Source: Gammaproteobacteria bacterium (GTDB taxonomy: Bacteria > Pseudomonadota > Gammaproteobacteria > G965209235). Taken from it: 64,000 nucleotides of DNA. The notes beneath the pieces are model-generated. The model did not search any database and was not told where the DNA came from. It saw only the letters and a program-made list of their open reading frames with translations. A program made the translations under genes and the position numbers. The DNA is taken from positions 1,058,957-1,122,956 of the forward strand of contig OZ242382.1 of assembly GCA_965209235.1 (NCBI GenBank), given 5' to 3'. The stretch's first letter is position 1. The number at the start of each line of letters is the position of its first letter. Below are positions 19,883-43,883 of this stretch, piece after piece.

Positions 19883-20500
19883 TCACAACGTACCGCGGTG
19901 AGCGGCATTGTTAGAGCGGCGGCAAGAATGAGAATGTTGGGCACTCGCGGTATGTTGCGAGAACGCTCCGATGGTCGTCAAGCACAGAAAGACGACCGCG
20001 TCTCGCTCAACTGCGCATACATGGTCAACGGATAGATGTAGTTCCAAAAAAGTAATAAGCGCGAGAGATGTGGTGGATAGAGTGATATACAAGAACGATA
20101 ACTTGCTTGTACGAAAGACAAAGCAGTCTTTGCTCCGATACTGTGCGATCGCAACAATTACGAAAACAATGAGTGCCAACCAAGACGGCCTAGGCAAAGC
20201 AGATCAGTGAATAGATTGACGTAGTCCCGTAGAAAGAGACTGATCCTCTGAAAGTAAGCGCGAAATAGAGAATACGAATATACACCTAGAAGATGCTGAA
20301 CAACGCAGTATCAAATATCATTGTGTTAGGCAACGACCCGGTTTGGATGAGTGTAAGGTGGCTGGCAGATATAATGGTTGTCGTTGCGCCCTCGCCAATC
20401 TATTGATGTGCAATTCCGGTTCGATTTGGCGCAGAGAGATAAGAGAGCGCATACAACAATGACAGAAGCAAAGCAAAACGGACGCGCGGATGCGCTCCAG
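19883..20500 (-). pseudogene. Possible decayed membrane-protein gene
   Basis: The minus strand gives hydrophobic peptide stretches (e.g. RFALLLSLLYALSYLS, MIFDTALFSIF*VYIRILYFAL, WLALIVFVIVAIA) interrupted by in-frame TAG stops and a frameshift. No family was recognised. Confidence 0.3.
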
Positions 20501-20629
20501 GACGTGAGATATTGTTCGGATAATTTGATCTTACAGATGGTATGTTGAAACGCTTACCCACAGAAAGGAGAAGCTAGATGAAGAGTCATCTGAAACGTCG
20601 AATTAACTATAAATCATAGGACTATTAAT

Positions 20630-22567
20630 GTGAAATATCGCGCGGAAATTGATGGCTTGAGGGCGCTTGCTGTTGTGCCAGTGATACTATTCCACGCTGG
20701 ATTTGAGCTATTCAGTGGAGGCTTTGTTGGCGTCGATGTTTTCTTCGTTATTAGCGGCTATCTGATCACGACAATCCTTATCGATGACATAGAAAAGGAA
20801 CGTTTTAGTATCGTTAGCTTCTATGAGCGACGTGCGCGACGAATACTACCTGCACTATTTTTTGTCATGCTTGTCTGCGTGCCTTTCGCGTGGATTTGGA
20901 TGTTCCCCAGCCAGATGAAAGACTTTTCAACGAGCCTGGTTGCTGTCAGCTTGTTCGTGTCTAACATCTCGTTTTGGCAGGAAAGTGGTTACTTCAATCC
21001 TGCTGTTGATGCAAAGCCTTTGCTACATACTTGGAGTTTGGCCGTCGAGGAGCAATACTACGTGCTATTTCCTATCTTTCTTACGATGGCTTGGCGTTTC
21101 GGAAAGAGTAGAGTATTTTGGATGATTGTTGCTATGGGTGGCATCAGTCTCCTGTTAAGCGAATGGGGATGGCGAAATAAGTCGATTGCCAACTTCTATC
21201 TTGCACCGACACGAGCCTGGGAGTTGTTGGCTGGTTCAATAACAGCATTCATCGTGCAACACAAGGGTGTGAGGAAGAGTGACATATTAGCTCTTGTAGG
21301 CTTGGGTGCAATCGCATTTTCCATTCTTGCTTATGATAAACACACACCGTTCCCAAGTGTGTACGGCCTGGTTCCAGTTCTGGGTGTGGTACTGCTTGTT
21401 CTCTACGCTCACAAAGATACGCTGGTCGCCAAAATCCTTGGGTCAAAGGCGTTCGTTGGTGTTGGGCTGATCAGCTACTCTGCTTATCTATGGCATCAGC
21501 CGTTGTTTGCGTTTGCCCGGTTAAGAATGCATGAACCCGGAATGCTCACATTCATTTTGCTGAGTATCGCATCATTGCTACTGGCGATTGTTTCCTGGAA
21601 GTACGTGGAACGTCCGTTCAGGCGCAAGGACGGCTTGTTGTCCAGTAGGTCGCTAGTGTTCTACAGTTCAATTGCCGCGGTGGTGGCGTTTTCAGCGATT
21701 GGACTCATGGGTCGCATAAGCAATGGTTTTGAGAACGCGACAGAAGGTCGAAAACGTTTGGCAGATCTAGCAGCGCAGATAGAACCCAATCCAGGAATTA
21801 AATGGACATGTGCTGGATCGTTTGTCATCTCTGATGGCTGCTCTTCGGGCGATGGGCCCACTCTTCTGCTGTGGGGTGACAGTTTTGCAATGCATCTTTA
21901 CGAAGGTTTGAGGGCTAGCGCTCCTTCTTTGGGAATTATGCAAATTACGACAAATAGTTGTTCACCCATCCTCGGCATCTCAAGATTAAATCCATCCGGC
22001 GGAAATGGGTTGTCGTGGTCTAACCGATGCTTAGCATTTAATCAAGGAGCTTTCGAATGGTTAAAACGAAACAAAACTATTGATCTTGTTGTGATCTCGT
22101 CTCCATTTGGATGGGTTGGAACAGAAAGAACAATCAACTCCGATGGTGATGTTCTGGATCCGGATTTTGAGGTTGCACTTAGTGGCTTGTCACGAACAGT
22201 AAGGGCGATTGAGAATCTCGGAATTGAGGTAGTTGTTGTTTCAGCGTCACCAAAAAGCGGATTTGATGTGGGTCAATGTCTTATAAGAAGATATCAATTC
22301 AACTTGCGCGCTGGATGTGATTTTGAGTACGTTGAGTCAAGTTACAGGCATGATTTCTTTAGCGCTGTGGAGCAGAGTGTGCCGGTATACTGGCTTTACA
22401 AAGATCTTTGCACAGATGGCGTGTGTGAGGCAGAGAAAGGTAGTGTATTTATCTACAACGATGCTGTGCATTTAAGCAAGCAAGGCAGTGCTCTCATAGG
22501 TGCGTCGAACAATTGGTACGAGAGACTAAGAGAGTTAACGCTCAAAAGCAAGTTGCCGCAGAATTAG
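20630..22567 (+). CDS. OafA-type AT3-SGNH O-acyltransferase, copy 4 (AT-richer)
   Basis: 'KYRAEIDGLRALAV', 'HTWSLAVEEQYY'; SGNH motifs 'WGDSFA' and 'DAVH'. Codon usage is visibly more A/T-rich than copies 1-3. Confidence 0.92.
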   Translation: MKYRAEIDGLRALAVVPVILFHAGFELFSGGFVGVDVFFVISGYLITTILIDDIEKERFSIVSFYERRARRILPALFFVMLVCVPFAWIWMFPSQMKDFSTSLVAVSLFVSNISFWQESGYFNPAVDAKPLLHTWSLAVEEQYYVLFPIFLTMAWRFGKSRVFWMIVAMGGISLLLSEWGWRNKSIANFYLAPTRAWELLAGSITAFIVQHKGVRKSDILALVGLGAIAFSILAYDKHTPFPSVYGLVPVLGVVLLVLYAHKDTLVAKILGSKAFVGVGLISYSAYLWHQPLFAFARLRMHEPGMLTFILLSIASLLLAIVSWKYVERPFRRKDGLLSSRSLVFYSSIAAVVAFSAIGLMGRISNGFENATEGRKRLADLAAQIEPNPGIKWTCAGSFVISDGCSSGDGPTLLLWGDSFAMHLYEGLRASAPSLGIMQITTNSCSPILGISRLNPSGGNGLSWSNRCLAFNQGAFEWLKRNKTIDLVVISSPFGWVGTERTINSDGDVLDPDFEVALSGLSRTVRAIENLGIEVVVVSASPKSGFDVGQCLIRRYQFNLRAGCDFEYVESSYRHDFFSAVEQSVPVYWLYKDLCTDGVCEAEKGSVFIYNDAVHLSKQGSALIGASNNWYERLRELTLKSKLPQN

Positions 22568-23065
22568 GAAAGATGACTCAGCTCCTGACGTAAGAACGGG
22601 CTTTATCAACCTGATAGTGAGAGGCTATTGAAGATACTCTTCCGACACAAAGCATGCAACGTAACGGCTTGACAGAAACGGTGATAGAGAAAAGGAATGT
22701 TGCAGTTTCTCTCGTTTACCAACGGACGGCATACCTTTGTTTGACCGCTATTCCTCTAAGTATTTGTAGGTAACAGTTGGGTTGTCTGCTCCGCTAATCG
22801 AAGTTACCACTGGAAGGATGTAGTTGTAGTTTTTGGTGTTGAATGATACGTAAAAGCAACCACAGAAAATGTAGGATCTCTATTTGTAACACCAGCGTTC
22901 TATGAGAAATTGACAGCGATTCCTTACAGAACTTGCAGTGTGATGAAAAAGAATGTTTGATGCTGTCGACGCTGACCAGCAGTTGTTGTGTAACCAGTCT
23001 TAAGAATGATGTATAAAAATTATACGGCTAGATAATGGGAACCGTCCATAAAATGGCAGGTTGAA

Positions 23066-23698
23066 TCAATTGGATGCGGTTCTTAGTGTCTGTATAGCAT
23101 TCCCAAGCCTTTGAGTGTGAAATATGGCAGTTAAGGTTCCTTTGTTGTACGGCGTAGTTTGGGCCACGAGTGTATCGTGATTCAACAGTGAGTCGACGAA
23201 TCCAGAGACGTCACCATGGAGAAAAGTTGCTTGGCCATCTGTAGACAAGGACCAATGTCTCTCAACGGCTACTTCCTTGCCGACTCTTGTGGTAACCTTC
23301 GCTTCTCTTCTAAGATAGCTCCACCACACGATGATTAAATCGAGTTCGTTACGCTTACATCTTATGCTGAGAAATGGACTGCGGTTTAGCAAAGTATTAT
23401 TTTTAGATTCTGCGGGCAAACTTAAAATAACCAGTGCTGAGTCATCGATAAGGTCAGTTTCGACACTAACCCCCCATTTACCGAGTTCGTCAATCTGTGA
23501 TGCAACAACCTCATTTTCTTGGAGTGACAAAGTTCTCGCCGGAGCGTCGAAACATTGAATCTTCTGATCCGTGTCTTTGAGGGAAGAACAGGCCAGAAAT
23601 TCCGCATCAGAAATGGCTGCAAAACTGACTTCTACGGTTAGCATACAGGGTAGAATAATGAGGATCTCACGAATTATGATTAGCGTTGGTGACTTCAT
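23066..23698 (-). CDS. Exported protein resembling the TagO/VasI (T6SS-associated) family; possibly degenerating
   Basis: Signal-like N-terminus, then 'C....D..K.QCFD', 'GKW.V....D.IDDS..V.LSLPA', 'IRCK.NE', 'W..STD.QATF', 'LVAQ.TPY....TAIF'. This pattern was recalled for the family, not searched. Confidence 0.6.
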   Translation of the reverse strand: MKSPTLIIIREILIILPCMLTVEVSFAAISDAEFLACSSLKDTDQKIQCFDAPARTLSLQENEVVASQIDELGKWGVSVETDLIDDSALVILSLPAESKNNTLLNRSPFLSIRCKRNELDLIIVWWSYLRREAKVTTRVGKEVAVERHWSLSTDGQATFLHGDVSGFVDSLLNHDTLVAQTTPYNKGTLTAIFHTQRLGNAIQTLRTASN

Positions 23699-23916
23699 GA
23701 GAGGAGATCAGCCGTGAGGTAATTGTGATCTGCATTCCACTAACTTTCTTATTGCAAATGTTCGTGTAACCCTCGAGTGTGACTGTGTTGCGCAGGAATG
23801 ACTTCAGCTTATCTAAGTTTGTTCAGGGATTTGAAGCTTTACTTTGCTGAAGGCGTAGACCACAATTGATGGGGCTGTGATTTGGATATATCTAATAGGC
23901 GCCAACTAATGTCGTT

Positions 23917-24753
23917 TCAATACCAACCTCGTAGCCCGAGCAACACGGTGGTTTCATAGCTGTTAGTGTCGAACTCAAGGTTATCCAGATTTTGTGCGGG
24001 AAGTACGAGAGCGTGACGTATTCCCACATAAGGCGCAAATCGTGGCGTCACCTCGTAACGTAGGCGCATTCCAGCCTCTAGTTGAGTGATTCCGCGGATA
24101 ACGTCCTGCTCTTCTACGGCTTGGAGGGAGAGGTTGATTTCAGCCCGGAACTGCAGTATCAGTTGTTTTGAGTACGTCCACTCGTATTCAATCTCCGCTC
24201 TGCCAAACACGTCACCTCGGTGGCTGACGAACACCGCGACATCCACTTCCCACCAGTATGGCGCTAACCCGTGCACGCCAAACACGGCATAAGCGGTTCC
24301 GCGCGGTGAGACATCTTGGCGGTATCCCAGTTGAATGTCCCAATACGGTGAGATGGCGTGACTCCATAGCGCCTGAAGCTCCCCGTCTTCTAGCTCATCA
24401 GTGTCAAGATCGTACTCGCCTTCTGTTTTCCACAGGAACTTGTTGATGTCGCCTCCAACCCAACCTGAGGCATCCCACACGAACTCCGTACCGTCGTAAC
24501 CGCGAATCTCCGTGCGCTCAAACACGCTCAACCACCCCAGTGCAGATCCGTGGTGGTGTTGAAGTTGCTCGCGAGCGCGTCTCATCTCTTCGGGGTCATA
24601 GTGTTCGTCGGCCTGAGACCATGGTGGCTCGGCATCGGTGTCTTGACTATGAGCATGCTCGTCATCCGCTGCAGTAGCAACTGCCGGCAAGAGGGCGAGA
24701 GTGAGAAGCCATAGAACTGAGCGCGCGGCAATGGCTTGCATGAGCTCAGGCAC
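23917..24753 (-). CDS. copB: Copper resistance protein B (outer membrane)
   Basis: 'WDASGWVGGD.NK.LWKTEGE', 'LWSHAISPYWD.QLG.RQD', 'GLAPYWWEVD', terminal 'GLRGWY'. Confidence 0.92.
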   Translation of the reverse strand: MPELMQAIAARSVLWLLTLALLPAVATAADDEHAHSQDTDAEPPWSQADEHYDPEEMRRAREQLQHHHGSALGWLSVFERTEIRGYDGTEFVWDASGWVGGDINKFLWKTEGEYDLDTDELEDGELQALWSHAISPYWDIQLGYRQDVSPRGTAYAVFGVHGLAPYWWEVDVAVFVSHRGDVFGRAEIEYEWTYSKQLILQFRAEINLSLQAVEEQDVIRGITQLEAGMRLRYEVTPRFAPYVGIRHALVLPAQNLDNLEFDTNSYETTVLLGLRGWY

Positions 24754-34724: not shown

Positions 34725-35597
34725 GTGGATATTCAAGCGGCCATTATTCCATGCGCGGGTCGCGGCCTGCGCATGATGCCCTTGACTAAGGCGGTGTCCA
34801 AACCGCTACTCCCGGTCTTGGACCGCCCTCTGATTCAGTACGCCATCGACGAAGCGTGGGCCGCGGGATGCACGCGGGTGATCTTGGTTGTCTCACCCGG
34901 TGACGCGGCTATGCGACGGTACGTGGCGCCCGATCCCGAGCTCAAGCGCATCACTGTCAAACGCGAGGCTGTTGCGAAATTAGTCGCCATGAGCGATGTG
35001 CCTCCGGGATGTGACATCGTCGTTGCTGAGCAAACCGAACCGCATGGCTTGGGTCATGCCGTGGGCGTGGGGTGCGCGCACCTTGGCCCCAACGAATCCT
35101 TTGCTGTCATCCTGCCTGACGAAGTCGTGTTGCCGCCTCAGGTAGCTGGGCAACGAGTGGGATTGGCTGCGCTGGTGGATGTCGTGCAGAGCACAGGTCG
35201 CGCCGCTGTTGCGGTGGAACCGGTGGATCCGGCGCACACGCGAAGCTATGGCATTGCTGACTGTGACTCGCTCGAAGGCCAGATCAGCGTGCCGTTGCGC
35301 GGTGTCGTTGAAAAGCCAGATCCCGATGATGCGCCCTCGTGCTACCGCTTGCCGGGACGATATATCCTTCCACCTGAAGTGGCTCGTGCTCTCGCTCGGA
35401 CGCCTCGTGGAGCCGGTGATGAAATCCAGCTCACCGATGGTATTCATATTGCGGTGCAAGACGGTGCTGCGATTGATGGTGCGCTCATGGTGGGCGACAT
35501 TGAAGACTGCGGAAATCATGCTGGTGTCTTGAAAGCGACCATCCGGATCGCGAAGCGGAAACCCGAGTTTATGACCGTGCTTGAGTCGGTGTTGTGA
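34725..35597 (+). CDS. galU: UTP--glucose-1-phosphate uridylyltransferase
   Basis: 'AIIPCAGRGLRMMPLTKA..KPLLP', 'Q..P.GLGHAV', 'LPD', 'VEKP', 'EIQLTD'. Start is uncertain (34692 or 34725). Confidence 0.9.
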   Translation: MDIQAAIIPCAGRGLRMMPLTKAVSKPLLPVLDRPLIQYAIDEAWAAGCTRVILVVSPGDAAMRRYVAPDPELKRITVKREAVAKLVAMSDVPPGCDIVVAEQTEPHGLGHAVGVGCAHLGPNESFAVILPDEVVLPPQVAGQRVGLAALVDVVQSTGRAAVAVEPVDPAHTRSYGIADCDSLEGQISVPLRGVVEKPDPDDAPSCYRLPGRYILPPEVARALARTPRGAGDEIQLTDGIHIAVQDGAAIDGALMVGDIEDCGNHAGVLKATIRIAKRKPEFMTVLESVL

Positions 35598-36709
35598 GAC
35601 TGTCGCTTAAGGCATTATTGACAGCGAGAACGATCGCAAAGAGCTTGGGCTTGCTGGGCGTAGGTTGGAAAATTGCGCCATACCGCACGCGCGAACTGAG
35701 CCTCAAGATCATTCGGACGGTCATGTCCGGTGGCGTGCCTGCTGCGCCGACCGGTCAGCACACAAAGGCGCTGGGCCTGACGTTCCAGAATCCCATTGGG
35801 ATTGCCGCTGGTATTGACAAAGACGGCAAATACTTGTCCGCGCTGGCGCACTGCGGCTTTGGCTGCATTGAAGTGGGCACGGTCACGCCGAAGCCTCAAG
35901 GTCCGAATACAGGATCCGTGATGCATGCGATGCCTAGGTCAGAGGGATTGAGCATGATCAATCGGCTGGGGTTTCCCGGCGAGGGCATGGTGGCGGTGAG
36001 ACAACGCATCGAAGCCGAATGTCCGTGGGTGATGAATGTCCCTAGCCACGAGCGACCCATTGTCGGGATCAACATCGGCAAAAATCGCGACACGCCCATG
36101 GACACCATGCACGAGGACTATGTCCGCTGCGCCGAGTACATGGCGCCCGTGGCTGATTACATCACAATCAACTTGAGCTCCCCGAATACGGCAGGGCTAC
36201 GCGATGCGTTGCTGGGCACGGGACTACGCGATCTTCTGGGCGATGTGAAGGACCGGGCGTCTGCTACCGGCACCATGCCAGTGATCCTCAAAGTGCCGCC
36301 GGATCTCGCAACGCCCGAGATTCAAGCGGTGAGAAACGCTGCTGAACGCGCTGGTATCGATGGGATCTGTTGTGGCAACACGTTGTCAGTCAAACGAGGC
36401 GATAAATCCCCCGCCGATCAAAAGACCTTTGTCATGGACGGCGGATTGAGTGGTGCTGCGGTTGCAGAGACCTCGCTTCGGGCTTTGCAGGCGTGGGATG
36501 ACGCTTTGCGTGATTCGTCACTCGCCTTGATTGCGTGTGGGGGGATCCAGACGCCTGACGATCTCGCGAGCCGCTTGGACACCAAAGCCTCGCTTGTGCA
36601 AATCTGCACGGGACTAGTCGACCGGCCCGCAGAATGGATGAAGTACATCGACGTGCGGCCATCGAGTGAGCGCAATACGACGAGGAGCGCTCGAGCTAGC
36701 GCCGCCTGA
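35594..36709 (+). CDS. pyrD: Dihydroorotate dehydrogenase (quinone, class 2)
   Basis: 'GIAAGIDK', 'EVGTVTP', 'NRLGF', 'GINIGKN', 'NLSSPNT', 'GGLSG'; GTGA overlap with galU. Confidence 0.92.
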   Translation: MRLSLKALLTARTIAKSLGLLGVGWKIAPYRTRELSLKIIRTVMSGGVPAAPTGQHTKALGLTFQNPIGIAAGIDKDGKYLSALAHCGFGCIEVGTVTPKPQGPNTGSVMHAMPRSEGLSMINRLGFPGEGMVAVRQRIEAECPWVMNVPSHERPIVGINIGKNRDTPMDTMHEDYVRCAEYMAPVADYITINLSSPNTAGLRDALLGTGLRDLLGDVKDRASATGTMPVILKVPPDLATPEIQAVRNAAERAGIDGICCGNTLSVKRGDKSPADQKTFVMDGGLSGAAVAETSLRALQAWDDALRDSSLALIACGGIQTPDDLASRLDTKASLVQICTGLVDRPAEWMKYIDVRPSSERNTTRSARASAA

Positions 36710-38499
36710 TGTCAAAGGCACAAAAACGCGTGCAGTGGACTCAGTACAACATTCCAATCTTTGTCGTTAGCATGCCAAATAGCGGCCCTCGCCGCGATGC
36801 AATGACGGAACAGCTCAAACAACAGCAACTCCCTTTCCGCTTTATTCCTGGTGTGATGGTTCCCGGTGATGTGACGGAGCATGCGATGACCGCTTTACGG
36901 CGCCGGGTGGCCGACTGTGGCGCTAAACCATTAACGGCGCCTGAAGAAGGCATCTTCTTGGCGCACACACGCGCGTTGGCACAGTTGGTCCGCGAAGGGT
37001 GCGATGGAGCGGTCATCATGGAAGATGACGTCAAGTTGAGACCAGAGTTTCGCGGCGCGCTGCAAGAACTCCATCCGGCGCATCCCCCGCAATGGTTTAC
37101 GCACTACGAGTTTGATCCTGACAACGTGGTCAGTCGCTTGACGTATTGGAAGAGCCGCCGCGGCGCGAGACTGAAGACGGGGCCTGTGATTTCCACTTGC
37201 GCCTTATCGTGGGGCGGCGGCACAGCCGCGTACTGGGTGGACAGGCGGTCGGCGCTACTGTATTTAGCGGCGTTTCAGAGTCTGAGCGCACCGATTGACA
37301 TGATGTATTTGGATCGCCAGCTTGCGCCGCAGTGGGTGTGGGTCCCGCGGCCACGCACGGCACCAGCCCTTCATCCGTATGAGAGCCCGACGAGTGCAGC
37401 GACAGAAGCACGTAAGTCAACCGGCCGCGACCCGCATGCGCGGCTGGGTATCCTGCGGGCGGCGGGTACGGCCCTCGTGGCGGCGGCCCTTTGGGCGTTG
37501 CCAACGCCCACTCCTGGCACGCGCAAAGAGAGCGTGATGAAACGGCGTGGTCCGCTGGGATTCTTACGCCATTACGCGCGGGAAAGGGCGCAAGATCAAC
37601 GCCCGCTGACGCGCTTCAGCTGCGGCGCGAAGGCTCCCATCTACATCGCCGGTGACGTGCCATCCATGCCGGAGTGGGTGAAGACGTCTGGTAGCCGCGT
37701 GATGGTCGCGCCTCAGTCCGTCGCGCTCCCCCCGGAGCTGATTGATCACGAGATGGGGCATCTGGCGTGGGGAGAATGGCCGGATGTGACGAAACGCCGT
37801 GCAGCCGCGCACCTTTGGTGTATCGCGCGCATTGCCCGGGAACAGGCACAGGGGGCGATTGTGATGGAGCCGCATGCTGCACCTCACTCGGATTTTGCCG
37901 CGCTGTCAGAGGTGTTGCATCACCGCGGGCATCACTTTCCGTTGCTGCAACTGGTCAAAATCTTTCCCAAAGCCGGCGGCCCCTTGGGATCGCCCGTGTT
38001 TTCCCGCCGAAACGTGCGCTGGGCGCTCGACGCGCCGCGAACCTGCAGCCTCAATATGGGACAGGCCCCAAGCGCCGCGGCGTATTGGATTTCACGAGAC
38101 TATGCCAAACGCCTGATACGCGAGCTTGTCCCGTTGCGTGCGCCCATCGAATGGGCTTTGTTTGGCAATCCTTGGGCGGTGCGGCCACACTGGGCCATTG
38201 ATGCCGGACCATCGCCCGTCTCAGTGCAAGGAGTTGATCCCGGCGCGATCACGTGTGATAGTGGCCAGGGTCGTCTCGCGGCCTTGCGCCGCGTCGAACT
38301 CTCGTGGCGACACGTGTCGGATGACGATGCAAAAACACGCTGGGTGCGGCCGCAGCGGTTTCCATTGCGACCGCAGTTTGCGGCCACATGGCTGCGGCGA
38401 TTTCGTGGTCCCGCGCCCGTCGCCGAAATGGGTACGCAGCAATTGATGCAGGCGCTTGCGACGCTGTCCCCGGCTGATCAGAGGGATCCCATCGGATGA
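36709..38499 (+). CDS. Tandem GT25-like glycosyltransferase, paralog A (N-domain EDD, C-domain EPH)
   Basis: 'IPIFVVSM...RR', 'EEGIFLAH', 'AVIMEDD', 'GTAAYWVDRRSA', 'PID'; a second similar domain follows. TGATG overlap with pyrD. Confidence 0.75.
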   Translation: MSKAQKRVQWTQYNIPIFVVSMPNSGPRRDAMTEQLKQQQLPFRFIPGVMVPGDVTEHAMTALRRRVADCGAKPLTAPEEGIFLAHTRALAQLVREGCDGAVIMEDDVKLRPEFRGALQELHPAHPPQWFTHYEFDPDNVVSRLTYWKSRRGARLKTGPVISTCALSWGGGTAAYWVDRRSALLYLAAFQSLSAPIDMMYLDRQLAPQWVWVPRPRTAPALHPYESPTSAATEARKSTGRDPHARLGILRAAGTALVAAALWALPTPTPGTRKESVMKRRGPLGFLRHYARERAQDQRPLTRFSCGAKAPIYIAGDVPSMPEWVKTSGSRVMVAPQSVALPPELIDHEMGHLAWGEWPDVTKRRAAAHLWCIARIAREQAQGAIVMEPHAAPHSDFAALSEVLHHRGHHFPLLQLVKIFPKAGGPLGSPVFSRRNVRWALDAPRTCSLNMGQAPSAAAYWISRDYAKRLIRELVPLRAPIEWALFGNPWAVRPHWAIDAGPSPVSVQGVDPGAITCDSGQGRLAALRRVELSWRHVSDDDAKTRWVRPQRFPLRPQFAATWLRRFRGPAPVAEMGTQQLMQALATLSPADQRDPIG

Positions 38500-40457
38500 G
38501 CGGTTTCCGTGCCCCCGTCTTCATCATCACGTTACCTCATGCGCGTGGCAGAGCCGATGGCTTGGTGGCCGATCTCGCGGATATGGGAATTGATTCGACG
38601 GTGGTGATTGGAGTGCGGCCCACCGTTGACGTCACCACACAAGTCTTAGAACGTTTTCAAGCTCGGGTGCCAGAATTGCGGTTCAGGCGGAAACTTCTTG
38701 CTCCGGAATTCGGGTGCACGCTTGCGCATATGCGGCTGTATGCCCGGATCGTCAGAGAAGGGCTGCAAGGGGCGGTCATCATGGAAGATGATGCGGGGAT
38801 ACTGCCTCCATTTCAGTCGTTCTACGAGGCACTCCATCCGAGCTTGCCGCCGGTGTTTGCCAGCGCGCGGGAGCATCGTATCGGGCGCCGTATCTGGCAC
38901 ATGGCCAACCTTCGGGCCCGCTGCGCCGCCTGGCTTCAGGTCGGGGATCTGCGTGCGACACCTGCACTTCGGGCCATCGGTGGCACCACCACCTATTGGA
39001 TTGATCGCAGATCTGCCCTGCTAATGCTCAATCACTTGTCGGTTCCGATTGATGCCATTGACAACATGTTTTTGCAACCTGATATTTCGCCTCAGTGGGT
39101 GTGGCTGACCAGACTCGACTCGGGCGCGACCACGCACTCACTCGCGGTCAAGGAGGCATCGACGATTTGGAGTCACCGCCTCGACCGCGACCCCTGGGTC
39201 AACGATGCGCAGTGGGACCGGCTGATCTCAAGCAAACAGTGGCCCGAGGTTGGTCCACGCAAGAGGATGTGGGGTGCATCGCTTTGGGGATTCATGCGAG
39301 AGACAGCGCACATGCGCTGGGGCGCAGCCCCCACCCCGGGAAGCCGTCGCCGGTTTGCCTCCCTCAGTCGCAGCTCTGAGCCAACCGTTGTGCCGTCACA
39401 TGATGAGTCGCTGGCTGAGATGCCGGCCATCCCTCGGCGGAGAGGCGTGGGCGGTGTGATCAGCGCTGTTGTATCTCGCCTGCCAGGGGTGCGGATGATG
39501 CAGACGTGGCGCGCACACCGCCAAGATGTACTTGGCCAGCACGACAGTCAACGTCGCCCCATTTCTCGCGTCATGCAAGGGCCATATCCGCCTGTTTTCT
39601 TAGCGCAGGCGGATGGTACCAGTGATGCAGCGATCACGCTGGCCCATGCGGGGTGTTCGGTGATGGCGATGGGTACCACGCAAGCATTGCCGTATGGGCT
39701 TCGATGTGTCGACGTCGTGCCAGCGCATTGGCGGCACATTCATGATCACGATGGTGCATGGGCGCGAGTCCAAACCCATTTGGCCATTTGGCAACGTATT
39801 GCCAATCTCACAGAAGGGTGTGGCGCCCTCGTCATTGAGCCGCAGGTGCAGCTGCGCGAGGATGTGCGCGGGTTGCTGGAAGTGTTGCATCACCGCGGTA
39901 GCAGTTTTTCGCTGCTGAACCTGTCAGCGAATGCAACTCAGGGGCGTTTCCCCATGCGCGATGACCCCATTGTGGGTCGGCGAGCCGAACGGTTTGTTTT
40001 GGACGGCGCGAGACAGTGTTCAGTCAACCTCGGGGCATCGTCGCTAGCGGGGGCCTATTGGCTGAGCAAAGGCGCGGCACAGAGACTTTTGAACGAAGCG
40101 GTGCCGTTGAGAGGACCGATTGAGCATGTGCTGTTTGGATGGCCGTGGGCTTTTCGCCCGCACTGGATCACGCTGCCGGGCATGGCACCTTTTGCTGATC
40201 TGGGACATCCAGCGGCTGTGTCGGCGCCGCGTCTTCGCGGCGCGAGATGGGGCGCTGCGCGCTTGCGCGCCGGTCAGGGAATTGCCTTCGATCAGTTAAA
40301 TCGCATCACCAGACCCGCCGAGGTGCCTATTGGATTTCACCCCGCATGGATTCATCGCACCGCGGCGCCTGGGCCACTGATGCAGTCACTGCGGGAAGTC
40401 CGGCAGGCGGTGAAGCAGATCGCTGACACAATGCCTGTCACTCACATTCGCGGCTAA
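38496..40457 (+). CDS. Tandem GT25-like glycosyltransferase, paralog B (N-domain EDD, C-domain EPQ)
   Basis: 'PVFIITL', 'PEFGCTLAH..LY..IV', 'AVIMEDD', 'GTTTYWIDRRSA'; ATGA overlap with paralog A. Confidence 0.78.
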   Translation: MSGFRAPVFIITLPHARGRADGLVADLADMGIDSTVVIGVRPTVDVTTQVLERFQARVPELRFRRKLLAPEFGCTLAHMRLYARIVREGLQGAVIMEDDAGILPPFQSFYEALHPSLPPVFASAREHRIGRRIWHMANLRARCAAWLQVGDLRATPALRAIGGTTTYWIDRRSALLMLNHLSVPIDAIDNMFLQPDISPQWVWLTRLDSGATTHSLAVKEASTIWSHRLDRDPWVNDAQWDRLISSKQWPEVGPRKRMWGASLWGFMRETAHMRWGAAPTPGSRRRFASLSRSSEPTVVPSHDESLAEMPAIPRRRGVGGVISAVVSRLPGVRMMQTWRAHRQDVLGQHDSQRRPISRVMQGPYPPVFLAQADGTSDAAITLAHAGCSVMAMGTTQALPYGLRCVDVVPAHWRHIHDHDGAWARVQTHLAIWQRIANLTEGCGALVIEPQVQLREDVRGLLEVLHHRGSSFSLLNLSANATQGRFPMRDDPIVGRRAERFVLDGARQCSVNLGASSLAGAYWLSKGAAQRLLNEAVPLRGPIEHVLFGWPWAFRPHWITLPGMAPFADLGHPAAVSAPRLRGARWGAARLRAGQGIAFDQLNRITRPAEVPIGFHPAWIHRTAAPGPLMQSLREVRQAVKQIADTMPVTHIRG

Positions 40458-40467
40458 CGGCACCCAT

Positions 40468-42033
40468 ATGTCATCCATGGATGTTTCAGTGCAGACGGCC
40501 GGCGTGGGTCAGATGCCGGTCTTTATCGTGCAGCGTGAGGCCAGCCGCGATCGTGCCCTTGGCCTCGAACGTGACCTTGCAGATCTTGGGATTTCGGCCG
40601 CGCATTGGCCTTTGTTGCGCGCGGGTATTGACGTCTCCGCTGGATGGATGGAACGAGCCGCGCGCGCCATTCCGCCGCCTTCTGAGGAGGCGTTTTTAAG
40701 ACACTTTGCGCATGCTCGGTTGTACGCCCATATCGTGGCCAAGGGGCTGCCGGGCGCCGTGATCCTCGAAGATCACGCGTGCGTCAGTCCGCGCTTTGCT
40801 GCGTTGTACCACGCCTTTCACCCGGGGCTTGCACCCGTGATGGCGTCGATGGACGGGTTGCAACATGTGACGTCCGATTCCGGCGTGTCCCTGGCATTGG
40901 GTGATGCGATCGCAACGCGCGGTACGTTCGGGGTCGGTCATCCTGCGTGTTACTGGATCGATCGGCGCAGCGCGCTCAAGCGACTCAATGCTGCGATCCC
41001 TCCGTTGCGTTACGCCGGCGATATGTGGTTGCTGCGCCGCGAGGATCAAGTGGCGACCTATCCGCAGACTGCTGTTCTCAATCGGTCTCCCGTGGTGCAT
41101 GCCTCGCGCAATCACCCGATGCCAGCGCGCCGAACGGGAAGGTCTCGCGTCTTAGCGGGGCCCGTGCCCCCCGTGGTGGTCATTGAGGAAGCAGGTGCGT
41201 CATCTGTGGCCGCGGAACTCCGTGCCATGGGGTGCGATGCGCAGATCGTGAAACCCATTGACGTGCTCCCTCCTGATGCAATCTGCCCGTTTCGACGGCA
41301 GCTGCATTGGTCGCAAGTGGATGATGCTGTCTGGCACCGCGGCATGCAACATGTTTGCGCGTGGCGGTGGATCGCCGAACACGGTGAAGGGAGCGGCGGC
41401 TTGGTCGTGGACAGCCAGGCACGGGTACAGCACGACCTCTCGGCGTTGCTGGCAATTTTGCGTCGTCGCGGTGACCTCTTTGAGGTACTCAACCTCACAT
41501 CACAGATCACGGAATCGACATGGCCGCGGTTGAACGACTCTTTTGTGGGACTGGACTCTGAAAGCTATGCGCTGGATGATGGACGGGAGTGTGGAATCAA
41601 TCTCGGTGCGTCTGCCAGTGCCAGTGCGTACTGGGTGAGCCAGTCCGGCGCGAAGCGGTTGTTGAACGAATGTGTACCCATGAGGGCACCTATTGAGCAT
41701 GCGTTGTTTGGGTTGCCGTGGTCCTTTCGTCCCCACTGGATCCTGACCAAGGGACAACCGCCGCTGTCGGCTGAACGCCACCCGCTGGATGCTGACATGT
41801 CACAGCCCACCGATTGGCGTGGCCGGTGGCTCGCGCGCTATTGGCGTCTTGGCGCCGGCGTGGCTCTGTCCCAGTGGTCTCAGGCTCAACGAAACACCGC
41901 CTTTTGGCCCAAGGATCGTATTGAAACCATTCTCAAACGCCGATTCAGAGGACCTGCCCCACAAGTCTCGCCTTTGCTGACATCGCAGATCGCTCAACTG
42001 GCCGATCGCGTGGTGGCGCCATGGTTGCCATGA
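40468..42033 (+). CDS. Tandem GT25-like protein, paralog C (N-domain EDH, C-domain DSQ; short linker)
   Basis: 'PVFIV', 'FAH.RLY.HIV', 'AVILEDH', 'ACYWIDRRSA'; C-domain collinear with paralogs A, B and D. Confidence 0.7.
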   Translation: MSSMDVSVQTAGVGQMPVFIVQREASRDRALGLERDLADLGISAAHWPLLRAGIDVSAGWMERAARAIPPPSEEAFLRHFAHARLYAHIVAKGLPGAVILEDHACVSPRFAALYHAFHPGLAPVMASMDGLQHVTSDSGVSLALGDAIATRGTFGVGHPACYWIDRRSALKRLNAAIPPLRYAGDMWLLRREDQVATYPQTAVLNRSPVVHASRNHPMPARRTGRSRVLAGPVPPVVVIEEAGASSVAAELRAMGCDAQIVKPIDVLPPDAICPFRRQLHWSQVDDAVWHRGMQHVCAWRWIAEHGEGSGGLVVDSQARVQHDLSALLAILRRRGDLFEVLNLTSQITESTWPRLNDSFVGLDSESYALDDGRECGINLGASASASAYWVSQSGAKRLLNECVPMRAPIEHALFGLPWSFRPHWILTKGQPPLSAERHPLDADMSQPTDWRGRWLARYWRLGAGVALSQWSQAQRNTAFWPKDRIETILKRRFRGPAPQVSPLLTSQIAQLADRVVAPWLP

Positions 42034-43883
42034 CGGGCGCCGTTGTCACACGGAAGATGCCCGTCTTTGTCGTGGCACTGGGAAGCCGGTTGCCGCAGGC
42101 GCAGGCCACGGTTCGCCTGCTTCACGACATGGGGATTGAGGCGCGCATTTTCCCTGGCGTGGTGCCGCCGAAAGATCTGGCGCCATCGGCTATCAACACC
42201 ATCTTGAATCGCGCGGCGCACCGGCGCCACCACCCCCTCACGACCGGCGAAGTGGGGTGTTACTTTGCGCACTACCGGGCGCTTGCATCCGTGGTGCGTG
42301 ACGGATTAAACGGCGTGGTGATGCTTGAAAGTGACGCATTGTTGCGGCCTGCGTTCAAAACCACGTATGAATCGCTGCATTCGTCGCTTCCATTCACGGG
42401 ATTGGCCGCGGGCGAGCTGCCGTTGGATACACAGTTGCATGTGAAGCAGCTCACTCGATCGCGCAACACGCCTTGGCTTCGGCTGGGCCAGATGCGCGGC
42501 GCCACGGCCATGACCTTCGTGTGCGGCACCTCTGGGTATTGGATGGATCGCCGCTCGGTGATCTTGGCGTTGTCTCATCTTCATTCCGTCTTCATGCCGA
42601 TTGACGAGATGCTGTCTTCTCATGGCACATCGGTCATGTGGCAGTGGGCGGTTCGTCCCCGCGACGCCAATGTTGTTGTGTCTCTTGGCGAGAACATGAC
42701 GGAATCGGCGATTGAAAAACAACGGCAGGAACGCGGTAGTACGCCGCGCGAAGCGCGATTGACGCTCGGGCAGCGCATCCGCACGCGCTTGCGATATATC
42801 CGAATGTTGGTGCTCCCGGCACCGCATCCCGGAACGCGCCAGACGTGTAATCTTCCCAAGCTCATGAGAGCTCCTGAACCCACGGCAGCCGTGGCGTCAG
42901 CGCCGGCCAAAGCTGCACCCACTCGCCCACTGCTTCATCGCATCTCAGATATGGCGGGCTCGTTAGCGATCGGTCGATTCATGATTGCGACCGTGCACGA
43001 CATTCGTGAAGCCAAGGGACAGACGCGGGCCCAACAACGCCAAGTCACGCGCTATGCGGCAGGGCCGTTCGCGCCGGTCTATCTCGCAGAAACAGCGGGT
43101 CGCACGGGTGATGCTTATGACACCATTGCGCGACGAGGACTTGAAGTCCAGTCTGTGCGGGCGAGCGAATCGCTCGGGGATGATTTGAAGTGCCGTTCCG
43201 TGATCGAAGAACACTGGAGCCATGTGGAACCGTCAGCTTGGGATCGTGCGGCGGCGCACATCGCGTGTTGGCAACGCATCGCAGATCAACGCCAGGGACA
43301 CGGCGGGGTGGTTATTGAGCCCCATGTCGACATCACGTGCGATGTGCGAGAGCTTCTAGAGGCGCTGTATCACCGGGGAGACACTTTTTCACTTCTCAAT
43401 TTGTGTCAGCCTGTGGCAGGCAGTCTTTGGCCGTCGCCAGATGATCCGTTTGCTGGAAGGCGCGCGTACCGATGGACACTCGATGGACAACGTCAGTGCT
43501 CTCTTAATCTGGGCGGCAGTCATTTGGCCGGCGCATACTGGGTCACCACGGAAGGCGCGCGCGCATTGTTGAACGAGGTGTTGCCGCTTCGGGCACCCGT
43601 GGAGCACGCCCTCTTCGGGCATCGTTGGGCACTGCGCCGCCATTGGTCCATCACGTCAGGCGGTGCGCCGTTTCGTGATGCGGGACACCATGATGCCGTG
43701 ACGCGGCATCGTTCAGTCGGCGGCCTATTGCATGCTCGCGCGGCTTGGCAGCACATGTTTGAAGCGAGACATGAAGAGGGACTGTCCACCGCCTCTGTGC
43801 CATGGTTTGACGGCGGCGTGCCGCAGTCGCCGCGTTTTGCTAGAGACGCCGCGCGGCGTCTGGCCAAGGACAGCCCGGCGTAA
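42030..43883 (+). CDS. Tandem GT25-like protein, paralog D (N-domain ESD, C-domain EPH)
   Basis: 'PVFVVAL', 'LTTGEVGCYFAH', 'VVMLESD', 'GTSGYWMDRRS', 'PIDEM'; ATGA overlap with paralog C at 42030. Confidence 0.75.
   Translation: MTGAVVTRKMPVFVVALGSRLPQAQATVRLLHDMGIEARIFPGVVPPKDLAPSAINTILNRAAHRRHHPLTTGEVGCYFAHYRALASVVRDGLNGVVMLESDALLRPAFKTTYESLHSSLPFTGLAAGELPLDTQLHVKQLTRSRNTPWLRLGQMRGATAMTFVCGTSGYWMDRRSVILALSHLHSVFMPIDEMLSSHGTSVMWQWAVRPRDANVVVSLGENMTESAIEKQRQERGSTPREARLTLGQRIRTRLRYIRMLVLPAPHPGTRQTCNLPKLMRAPEPTAAVASAPAKAAPTRPLLHRISDMAGSLAIGRFMIATVHDIREAKGQTRAQQRQVTRYAAGPFAPVYLAETAGRTGDAYDTIARRGLEVQSVRASESLGDDLKCRSVIEEHWSHVEPSAWDRAAAHIACWQRIADQRQGHGGVVIEPHVDITCDVRELLEALYHRGDTFSLLNLCQPVAGSLWPSPDDPFAGRRAYRWTLDGQRQCSLNLGGSHLAGAYWVTTEGARALLNEVLPLRAPVEHALFGHRWALRRHWSITSGGAPFRDAGHHDAVTRHRSVGGLLHARAAWQHMFEARHEEGLSTASVPWFDGGVPQSPRFARDAARRLAKDSPA

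Follow-up and report, generated by a model that had tools for sequence, protein, structure and literature searches.

A stretch of 64,000 nucleotides from contig OZ242382.1 (positions 1,058,957 to 1,122,956, forward strand; GenBank assembly GCA_965209235.1) of a bacterium of the class Gammaproteobacteria, referred to here as the window, harbors four co-oriented open reading frames (ORFs), A–D, which together span positions 36709–43883 on the + strand. Gene A (36709–38499) encodes 596 residues, gene B (38496–40457) 653, gene C (40468–42033) 521, and gene D (42021–43883) 620. The stop codon of A and the start codon of B overlap (ATGA), B and C are separated by 10 nt, and the end of C overlaps the start of D. 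The proteins align end to end and share a common domain order, i.e., an N-terminal module (N-module), a variable linker (short in C), a C-terminal module (C-module), and a variable tail. In A, an N-terminal GT25 domain with an EDD motif is followed by a degenerate GT25-like module; the N-module of C is weakly GT25 and reads EDH, and that of D reads ESD. Clear transmembrane segments are absent from all four proteins, three of which (A, B, and D) are strongly basic, with net charges of +19 to +25. The C-modules, which are the subject of this report, occupy positions 37588–38265 in A (residues 294–519), 39546–40235 in B (residues 351–580), 41143–41814 in C (residues 226–449), and 43029–43715 in D (residues 337–565), all on the + strand.

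Pfam PF01755 matches are restricted to the N-terminal ~200 residues of the proteins, with E-values of 5.8e-15 for A (residues 15–199), 1.2e-12 for B (residues 7–183), and 4.7e-11 for D, and of only 0.0075 (16.6 bits) for C. No stretch of the C-modules reaches the PF01755 gathering threshold in full-length scans, the isolated modules give no match at E ≤ 10, and an NCBIfam scan of the A–D proteins returned zero matches. Searching the PDB sequences with the profile of the C-modules yielded chance matches only (E about 1). In profile–profile comparisons, the C-module profile matches that of the N-modules at 90.5% (E 1.4e-6) and, by hhalign, that of ten canonical GT25 domains at 99.3% (E 2.9e-20, 189 columns). 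An exhaustive hidden Markov model search of 1.84 billion representative proteins recovered the four window proteins and nine weak matches (E 3.5e-6 to 1e-3), and all nine non-self matches are PF01755 proteins; the term “GT25-like”, applied to the C-module in an earlier sequence-only reading of this DNA, is thus borne out.

The C-module of B was modeled by AlphaFold2 (AF2) on a 57-row alignment, and the model adopts a GT-A topology (predicted local distance difference test (pLDDT) 81.8, predicted template modeling score (pTM) 0.83). A Foldseek search of the PDB with this model returned 19 matches at E ≤ 0.001, which comprise mimivirus R655, COLGALT1, a bacterial GT25 β-1,4-galactosyltransferase, and vaccinia H3; the top matches (R655, COLGALT1, and 8xc8/8xlz) have template modeling (TM) scores of 0.48–0.57. 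A model of full-length A on a four-sequence alignment reached a pLDDT of 43.6 and was not used. On the profile and model comparisons, the C-module is clearly a GT25-derived GT-A domain missed by Pfam; it is a diverged internal duplicate of a GT25 (GT-A fold) glycosyltransferase domain, and the homology is regarded as established.

The GT25 domain of human COLGALT1 employs E435 and D437 to bind Mn2+ and D436 to bind the ribose, while R354 contacts the diphosphate, the backbone of G377 and S415 contact the uridine, and D522 is the catalytic base (PMC11897130, PMC12987934). Activity is abolished or nearly so in the E435A, D437A, and R354A variants (PMC11897130) as well as in D436A and D437A (PMC12987934). 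In a profile alignment to PDB chains, the family EDD falls on COLGALT1 residues 435–437 and P-I-D on D522. The corresponding triplets of the C-modules, with residues here and below given in the gene order A/B/C/D, are EPH (37867–37875), EPQ (39837–39845), DSQ (41410–41418), and EPH (43317–43325), at exactly the coordinates that the sequence-only reading had assigned to them, and the ExD motif is therefore absent. The E435 position reads E/E/D/E in the C-modules and E in all four N-modules, the D436 position P/P/S/P versus D/D/D/S, and the D437 position H/Q/Q/H versus D/D/H/D.

The differences extend to the remainder of the donor site. The R354 position falls in an acidic segment of the C-modules that is shortened by a three-residue deletion, and reads D/G/G/R, compared to R/R/R/Q in the N-modules. 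The diphosphate-binding arginine of the NLxxxxxR motif is thus gone in three of the four C-modules, while 48 of 49 comparison GT25 domains have it. The G377 position in the uracil loop reads A/A/V/S (N-modules V/P/A/P), and the S415 position, located just before an invariant histidine, reads A/T/Q/A (N-modules A in all four). The catalytic-base position is occupied by a glutamate in every C-module, as part of a P-[IV]-E motif (PIE at 38143–38151, 40116–40124, and 41689–41697 in A, B, and C, and PVE at 43596–43604 in D), and by an aspartate in every N-module and in 49 of the 49 comparison domains. A glutamate can serve as the base in GT14 and GT43 (PMC7185993). The tyrosine of the G..AY motif and the family-invariant histidine (H416, present also in the four N-modules) are retained in all C-modules, and the G-loop glycine in two of the four. 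The comparison set includes 45 metagenomic domains retrieved with an EDD-ending pattern, such that the invariance of their EDD is by construction, while that of their arginine, histidine, and base aspartate is not. Ten independently found GT25 relatives all carry E-D, followed by D in eight cases and T in two.

By sequence, the donor and metal site of the C-modules is degraded broadly, beyond the EDD; the positions differ among the paralogs, and no new consensus replaces the old one. The losses at R354, G377, and S415 thus strengthen the reading of the module as a putative pseudoenzyme. The catalytic motif of the N-modules also varies, being EDD in A (37015–37032), EDD in B (38778–38795), EDH in C (40762–40779), and ESD in D (42321–42338). 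The N-module of D has a glutamine in place of the diphosphate arginine, and the N-module of C has only a marginal GT25 score (16.6 bits) and sits on the longest branch (1.7) of the domain tree described below. By canonical rules, gene C may be without any working catalytic domain.

The flanking motifs that had been listed as common to the four C-modules correspond to invariant columns of the four-way alignment (R-G..F..L.L, L-D..R.C..N.G, A.AYW, and A..L..E..P.R.P.E..LFG..W..R.HW); in total, 41 C-module residues are invariant. The accompanying claim that the C-module is the most conserved part of the paralogs holds for one half of it. Mean pairwise identity over the whole module is 40% for the C-modules and 33% for the N-modules, with 29% for the linker and 23% for the tail. 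Over 174 structurally equivalent columns, the values are 41.7% and 34.9%, respectively, a small gap with a one-sided bootstrap p of about 0.035 that becomes about 0.10 when the test is repeated on a second alignment. The excess is found entirely after the ExD position. Up to ExD, i.e., in the nucleotide-binding half, identity is 30.6% for the C-modules versus 35.5% for the N-modules, whereas after ExD, in the half comprising the G-loop, the xED motif, and the acceptor side, it is 49.6% versus 32.9%, with 24 versus 12 invariant columns. For all 95 shared post-ExD columns, the C minus N difference is +0.128 (confidence interval 0.032–0.223, p 0.004). The extra conservation of the C-module is genuine yet limited to the part behind ExD; in the part ahead of it, conservation is, if anything, lower than in the N-module.

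The ratio of nonsynonymous to synonymous substitution rates (dN/dS), which had been proposed for the same comparison, cannot be estimated because synonymous sites are saturated: the proportion of synonymous differences (pS) is 0.66–0.85 throughout and 0.67–0.85 in the C core. Selection was therefore measured as pS, the proportion of nonsynonymous differences (pN), and codon identity. The pN is 0.32–0.44 in the C core and 0.47–0.57 in the N-modules, and purifying selection on the C-module at least as strong as that on the catalytic N-module is supported by these values. The terminal RRFRGPAP said to be common to A and C was found at 38395–38418 and 41938–41961 (+ strand). It is encoded by different codons in the two genes, with 15 of the 24 motif bases identical, and is thus under selection as a peptide.

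A tree was built by maximum likelihood from 61 GT25 domains; in it, the C-modules are monophyletic (Shimodaira–Hasegawa-like approximate likelihood-ratio test (SH-aLRT) 100), as are the four N-modules (99), and the two groups are sisters (85). Since each set of modules is monophyletic, the domain duplication preceded the gene quadruplication, and this order (first the domain, then the gene to four copies) is considered settled on the basis of the tree. The stem branch of the C-modules is long (2.21 vs 1.35) and their tips are mostly shorter; as judged from branch lengths, rapid change in the second copy was followed by stabilisation. The linkers (37440–37480, 39230–39300, and 42800–42850) share a P.P.PG[TS]R motif behind a short hydrophobic or amphipathic stretch. 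The A–D tails carry an RGPAP/PGP motif resembling that of the linkers, and relatives in a metagenome-assembled genome (MAG; see below) have W.PG.K after each GT25 domain. On the basis of these similar motifs after domains in linkers and tails, the duplicated unit may have been a GT25 domain plus its tail.

No orthologues of A–D were found among the 1.84 billion representative proteins, and a word-indexed homologue search with protein B recovered only itself; run with a mixed GT25 alignment, this type of search gave no match at E ≤ 1e-5, perhaps owing to its length or word filter. No relative was found by a profile scan of genome contigs with the four-paralog alignment, nor a C-module homologue in forty class-level relatives. 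Among public sequencing runs, the sequence occurs in the source sample only, with no independent strain and no RNA evidence. The nearest relatives are P0007 (642 residues) and P0005 (548 residues), whose genes lie side by side right behind galE in a MAG of the Gammaproteobacteria (OZ244031.1). This MAG holds four double-GT25 proteins, of which the 545- and 569-residue paralogs are encoded elsewhere in its genome. The tandem locus lies at 1865505–1873147 of OZ244031.1, and the MAG is the only other genome in which the double-GT25 architecture was seen.

The MAG double-GT25 proteins, which are uncharacterised, are collinear with A–D, consisting of a GT25 domain, a basic linker with a Pro/Gly-Arg/Lys motif, a second GT25 domain, and a tail, and they align with A–D by hhalign at 98.3% (E 1.2e-14, 477 columns across both domains and the linker). 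Both genomes harbor four paralogs, two of those in the MAG being adjacent, and in both a uridine diphosphate (UDP)-sugar gene lies alongside; the MAG proteins share with the window C-modules a PI[DE]..LF..W....W motif. In contrast to the C-modules, the second domains of the MAG proteins are still recognised as GT25 by Pfam and for the most part retain ED[DTN] as well as the arginine of NL..R. They read EDD, EDT, EDN (with the base aspartate replaced), and EDD; P0007 keeps EDD and the base aspartate in both of its domains. With EDT in one second domain and EDN with loss of the base aspartate in another, second-domain erosion is a recurring feature of the double-GT25 architecture. The two genomes are no closer than class level (TrmD is 39% identical). 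In the domain tree, the eight MAG domains form one clade (SH-aLRT 97) and the eight window domains another (85), which suggests that the internal duplications in the two lineages were independent, or that the domains were homogenised. Among the remote matches, P0010 (2173 residues) carries four GT25 stretches and a weak GT10 match; multi-GT25 arrays within one polypeptide thus exist elsewhere.

Catalytically intact GT25 relatives carry PID.LLFDW.YN.Y.PW. Much of the seemingly private P-I-E..LFG.PW...HW motif of the C-modules is therefore inherited and is no evidence for new chemistry. The sequence-only reading had offered a new chemistry on the conserved residues as one option. The largely inherited motif lends it no support, and the invariant glutamate at the base position keeps metal-independent catalysis alive.

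The host genome is a single contig of 1.47 Mb from a divergent lineage. The 3-deoxy-D-manno-octulosonic acid (Kdo) transferase WaaA (PF04413) is present, and a GT9 heptosyltransferase (PF01075) was not found in the genome, which is an estimated 89% complete. With WaaA present and no GT9 found, a heptose-less lipooligosaccharide or lipopolysaccharide (LOS/LPS) core made by other transferases is plausible for this host. Upstream of the array, co-oriented genes for a GalU-like sugar-1-phosphate nucleotidyltransferase and PyrD occupy 34725–36709 on the + strand (Pfam NTP_transferase 3.2e-21 and DHO_dh 4.4e-51), and the stop of pyrD overlaps the start of A (junction TGATG); rpsP lies downstream of the four genes. 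Two adjacent single-domain GT25 ORFs (frames of 275 and 292 residues), both passing the Pfam threshold, are located elsewhere in the host genome at 245556–246652. At 20001–24000 of the window, near the end of an acyltransferase expansion, the G+C content falls to 0.44–0.47, compared to about 0.58 elsewhere.

The interpretation favored here, with roughly even chances of being correct, is that the C-module is a non-catalytic GT-A pseudo-domain, which would have lost its canonical donor site and kept its acceptor-side half to bind a glycan acceptor or a partner. The module is GT-A-derived and paired with a paralogous domain of catalytic type, the N-modules of A, B, and D passing the PF01755 threshold; and it is under purifying selection. 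Among the residues needed for catalysis, the metal- and ribose-binding aspartates and the diphosphate arginine are gone, but an acid persists at the base position in the form of glutamate. We infer both the absence of catalysis and the binding role from the sequences. It is hypothesized that a GT25 domain was duplicated inside one gene, that the second copy evolved rapidly and shed the residues for donor binding, that the two-domain gene was then copied to four, and that the main target of selection has since been the post-ExD (acceptor-side) half of this second copy. This half would still form a cleft or surface that binds a partner paralog or the growing surface glycan, the latter likely being a heptose-less LOS/LPS core or some other glycan of the envelope. 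The C-module would thereby bring substrate or partner into place for the catalytic domains at the N-terminus, as COSMC does for T-synthase and as the inactive GT-A domain of COLGALT1 does for the catalytic GT25 domain of that protein.

Several observations weigh against this interpretation. An acid at the catalytic-base position is invariant, as is the family histidine, and E435 is retained in three of the four C-modules; COSMC-type dead domains usually lose the xED motif too (PMC7185993). Several arginines and histidines are invariant in the conserved half and could substitute for the metal, while the histidine at the D437 position in A and D could still bind one. The alignment behind the AF2 model consists mostly of GT25 homologues, such that the model corroborates the homology and is not independent evidence of the fold. 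With only four sequences and no orthologues, selection cannot be estimated site by site. The earlier proposal of a pseudoenzyme kept under selection stands with regard to the lost acidic motif, the further donor residues lost, and the purifying selection, but is weakened by the acid that all four modules keep at the base position. Among the roles that had been suggested for it, nucleotide-sugar sensing is the least likely because the nucleotide-binding half is degraded, variable among the paralogs, and least conserved.

The alternative that survives best, though doubtful, is that the C-module is an active transferase with a non-canonical donor site, either metal-independent or histidine-assisted, in which the glutamate would act as the base and arginine and histidine residues would neutralise the diphosphate, making each protein bifunctional. 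It would account for the invariant P-[IV]-E at the xED/D522 position, the invariant histidine, and the invariant arginines in HHRG, LD..R.C, P.R.P, and R.HW, as well as for purifying selection being strongest in the half with the G-loop, xED, and the acceptor site. There are precedents, since GT14 and prokaryotic GT6 lost the DxD yet work metal-free and GT14 and GT43 use a glutamate base (PMC7185993), and the MAG relative P0007 keeps EDD and base aspartate in both domains. However, the positions that would form the nucleotide site differ among the paralogs (D/G/G/R, A/A/V/S, and H/Q/Q/H) in the least conserved half of the module, the segment in place of the diphosphate-binding arginine is acidic, the G-loop glycine is present in only two of the four modules, and no Pfam or NCBIfam model matches. 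A stronger form of this alternative, in which the C-modules would be an active, metal-independent GT25 offshoot founding a new sequence family, with a donor-binding mode unseen in GT25 and four bifunctional proteins, is somewhat less probable still.

It is unlikely that the C-module has no specific ligand and serves as a folding or oligomerisation scaffold or as a membrane-association unit, its conserved half packing on the N-module or on the paralogs in a hetero-oligomer. The arrangement of the four paralogs as a single operon-like array whose stop and start codons overlap is consistent with such a role, as is the strongly basic character of A, B, and D. The decay of catalytic motifs in two of the N-modules, those of C (EDH) and D (ESD, R354 to Q), would fit a complex with catalytic activity in only part of its subunits, for which EXT1–EXT2 is a precedent. 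A pure scaffold, on the other hand, needs no invariant acid in an invariant xED-like motif, and the C-terminal aromatic motif is also found in single-domain and intact GT25 relatives and therefore predates any paralog–paralog interface. A scaffolding or oligomerisation role overlaps with that of the pseudo-domain favored above.

It is very improbable that the conservation is only apparent, produced either by homogenisation of the DNA through gene conversion or by some element that overlaps the genes on one or the other strand. Such a reading would suit tandem paralogs, which are prone to conversion, and a GC-rich stretch holding long antisense ORFs. It was rejected, since synonymous sites are saturated in the C core (pS as above), only 21–51% of the identical residues (22–51% for the C core) are encoded by the same codon, DNA repeat families between the genes measure, at their longest, 18–68 nt at 60–83% identity with no long near-identical tracts between C-modules, and an Rfam scan of the 64-kb window found nothing. 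The saturated synonymous sites and the differing codons at conserved residues thus point to protein-level selection and not gene conversion.

Pseudo-glycosyltransferase domains are known in eukaryotes (COSMC, the COLGALT1 N-domain, and EXT proteins) and are poorly documented in bacterial envelope-glycan pathways. The window provides an internally controlled case, in which each of four paralogs combines a catalytic-looking GT25 domain with a GT25-derived domain with a degraded donor site, the acceptor-side half of the latter being the best conserved part of the protein. It raises the question of the role of a GT-A acceptor cleft after loss of the donor site or, should the C-module be active, offers a metal-independent GT25 derivative. 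Most likely, the C-module represents a known kind of thing, a non-catalytic helper domain, within a protein family that is otherwise an orphan. Its practical reach is limited: the family is present in one uncultured lineage that evolves fast and has a small genome, and there are no orthologues.

The best structural matches to the C-module model, which are also sequence matches to the N-modules, are the bacterial GT25 β-1,4-galactosyltransferase (8xc8, 8xlz) and mimivirus R655 (9crz). Both differ in being single-domain proteins with an intact EDD and catalytic aspartate. Moraxella catarrhalis Lgt3 was considered as a two-domain GT25 precedent and rejected, as the literature places it in GT2 (PMC6171495).

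GT14 C2GnT-L and bacterial GT6 resemble the C-modules in having no DxD, and in GT14 a glutamate acts as base and the place of the metal is taken by basic side chains (PMC7185993). Invariant arginines and histidines occur in the post-ExD half of the C-modules, as placed by alignment. GT14 and GT6 are, however, whole families with a fixed alternative site, whereas the donor positions of the window modules vary among the four copies, and there is no homology between them beyond the GT-A fold. COSMC (C1GALT1C1, GT31) is likewise a duplicate of a GT-A enzyme without a DxD and acts as a scaffold or chaperone for its catalytic paralog (PMC7185993). It is a separate protein that has lost xED too, whereas the window copy is fused to a catalytic domain and keeps an acid at xED.

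Human COLGALT1/GLT25D1 (PDB 9evj, 8zgc, and 9u7h) also combines two GT-A domains, only one of which is catalytic. The latter is a GT25 domain with ExD (E435/D437), R354, and the base D522 (PMC12987934, PMC11897130), and the window N-modules and, remotely, the C-modules align to it. The sequence-only reading had drawn this comparison, and correctly so, in that a non-catalytic GT-A domain lies N-terminal to the catalytic GT25 domain (PMC12987934, PMC11897130). The order is thus reversed relative to the window proteins. Moreover, the inactive domain of COLGALT1 is GT2-like, keeps its DxD, and binds UDP-Gal/Mn2+ tightly, whereas the inactive-looking domain of the window proteins is itself GT25-derived and no longer has either the DxD or the diphosphate arginine.

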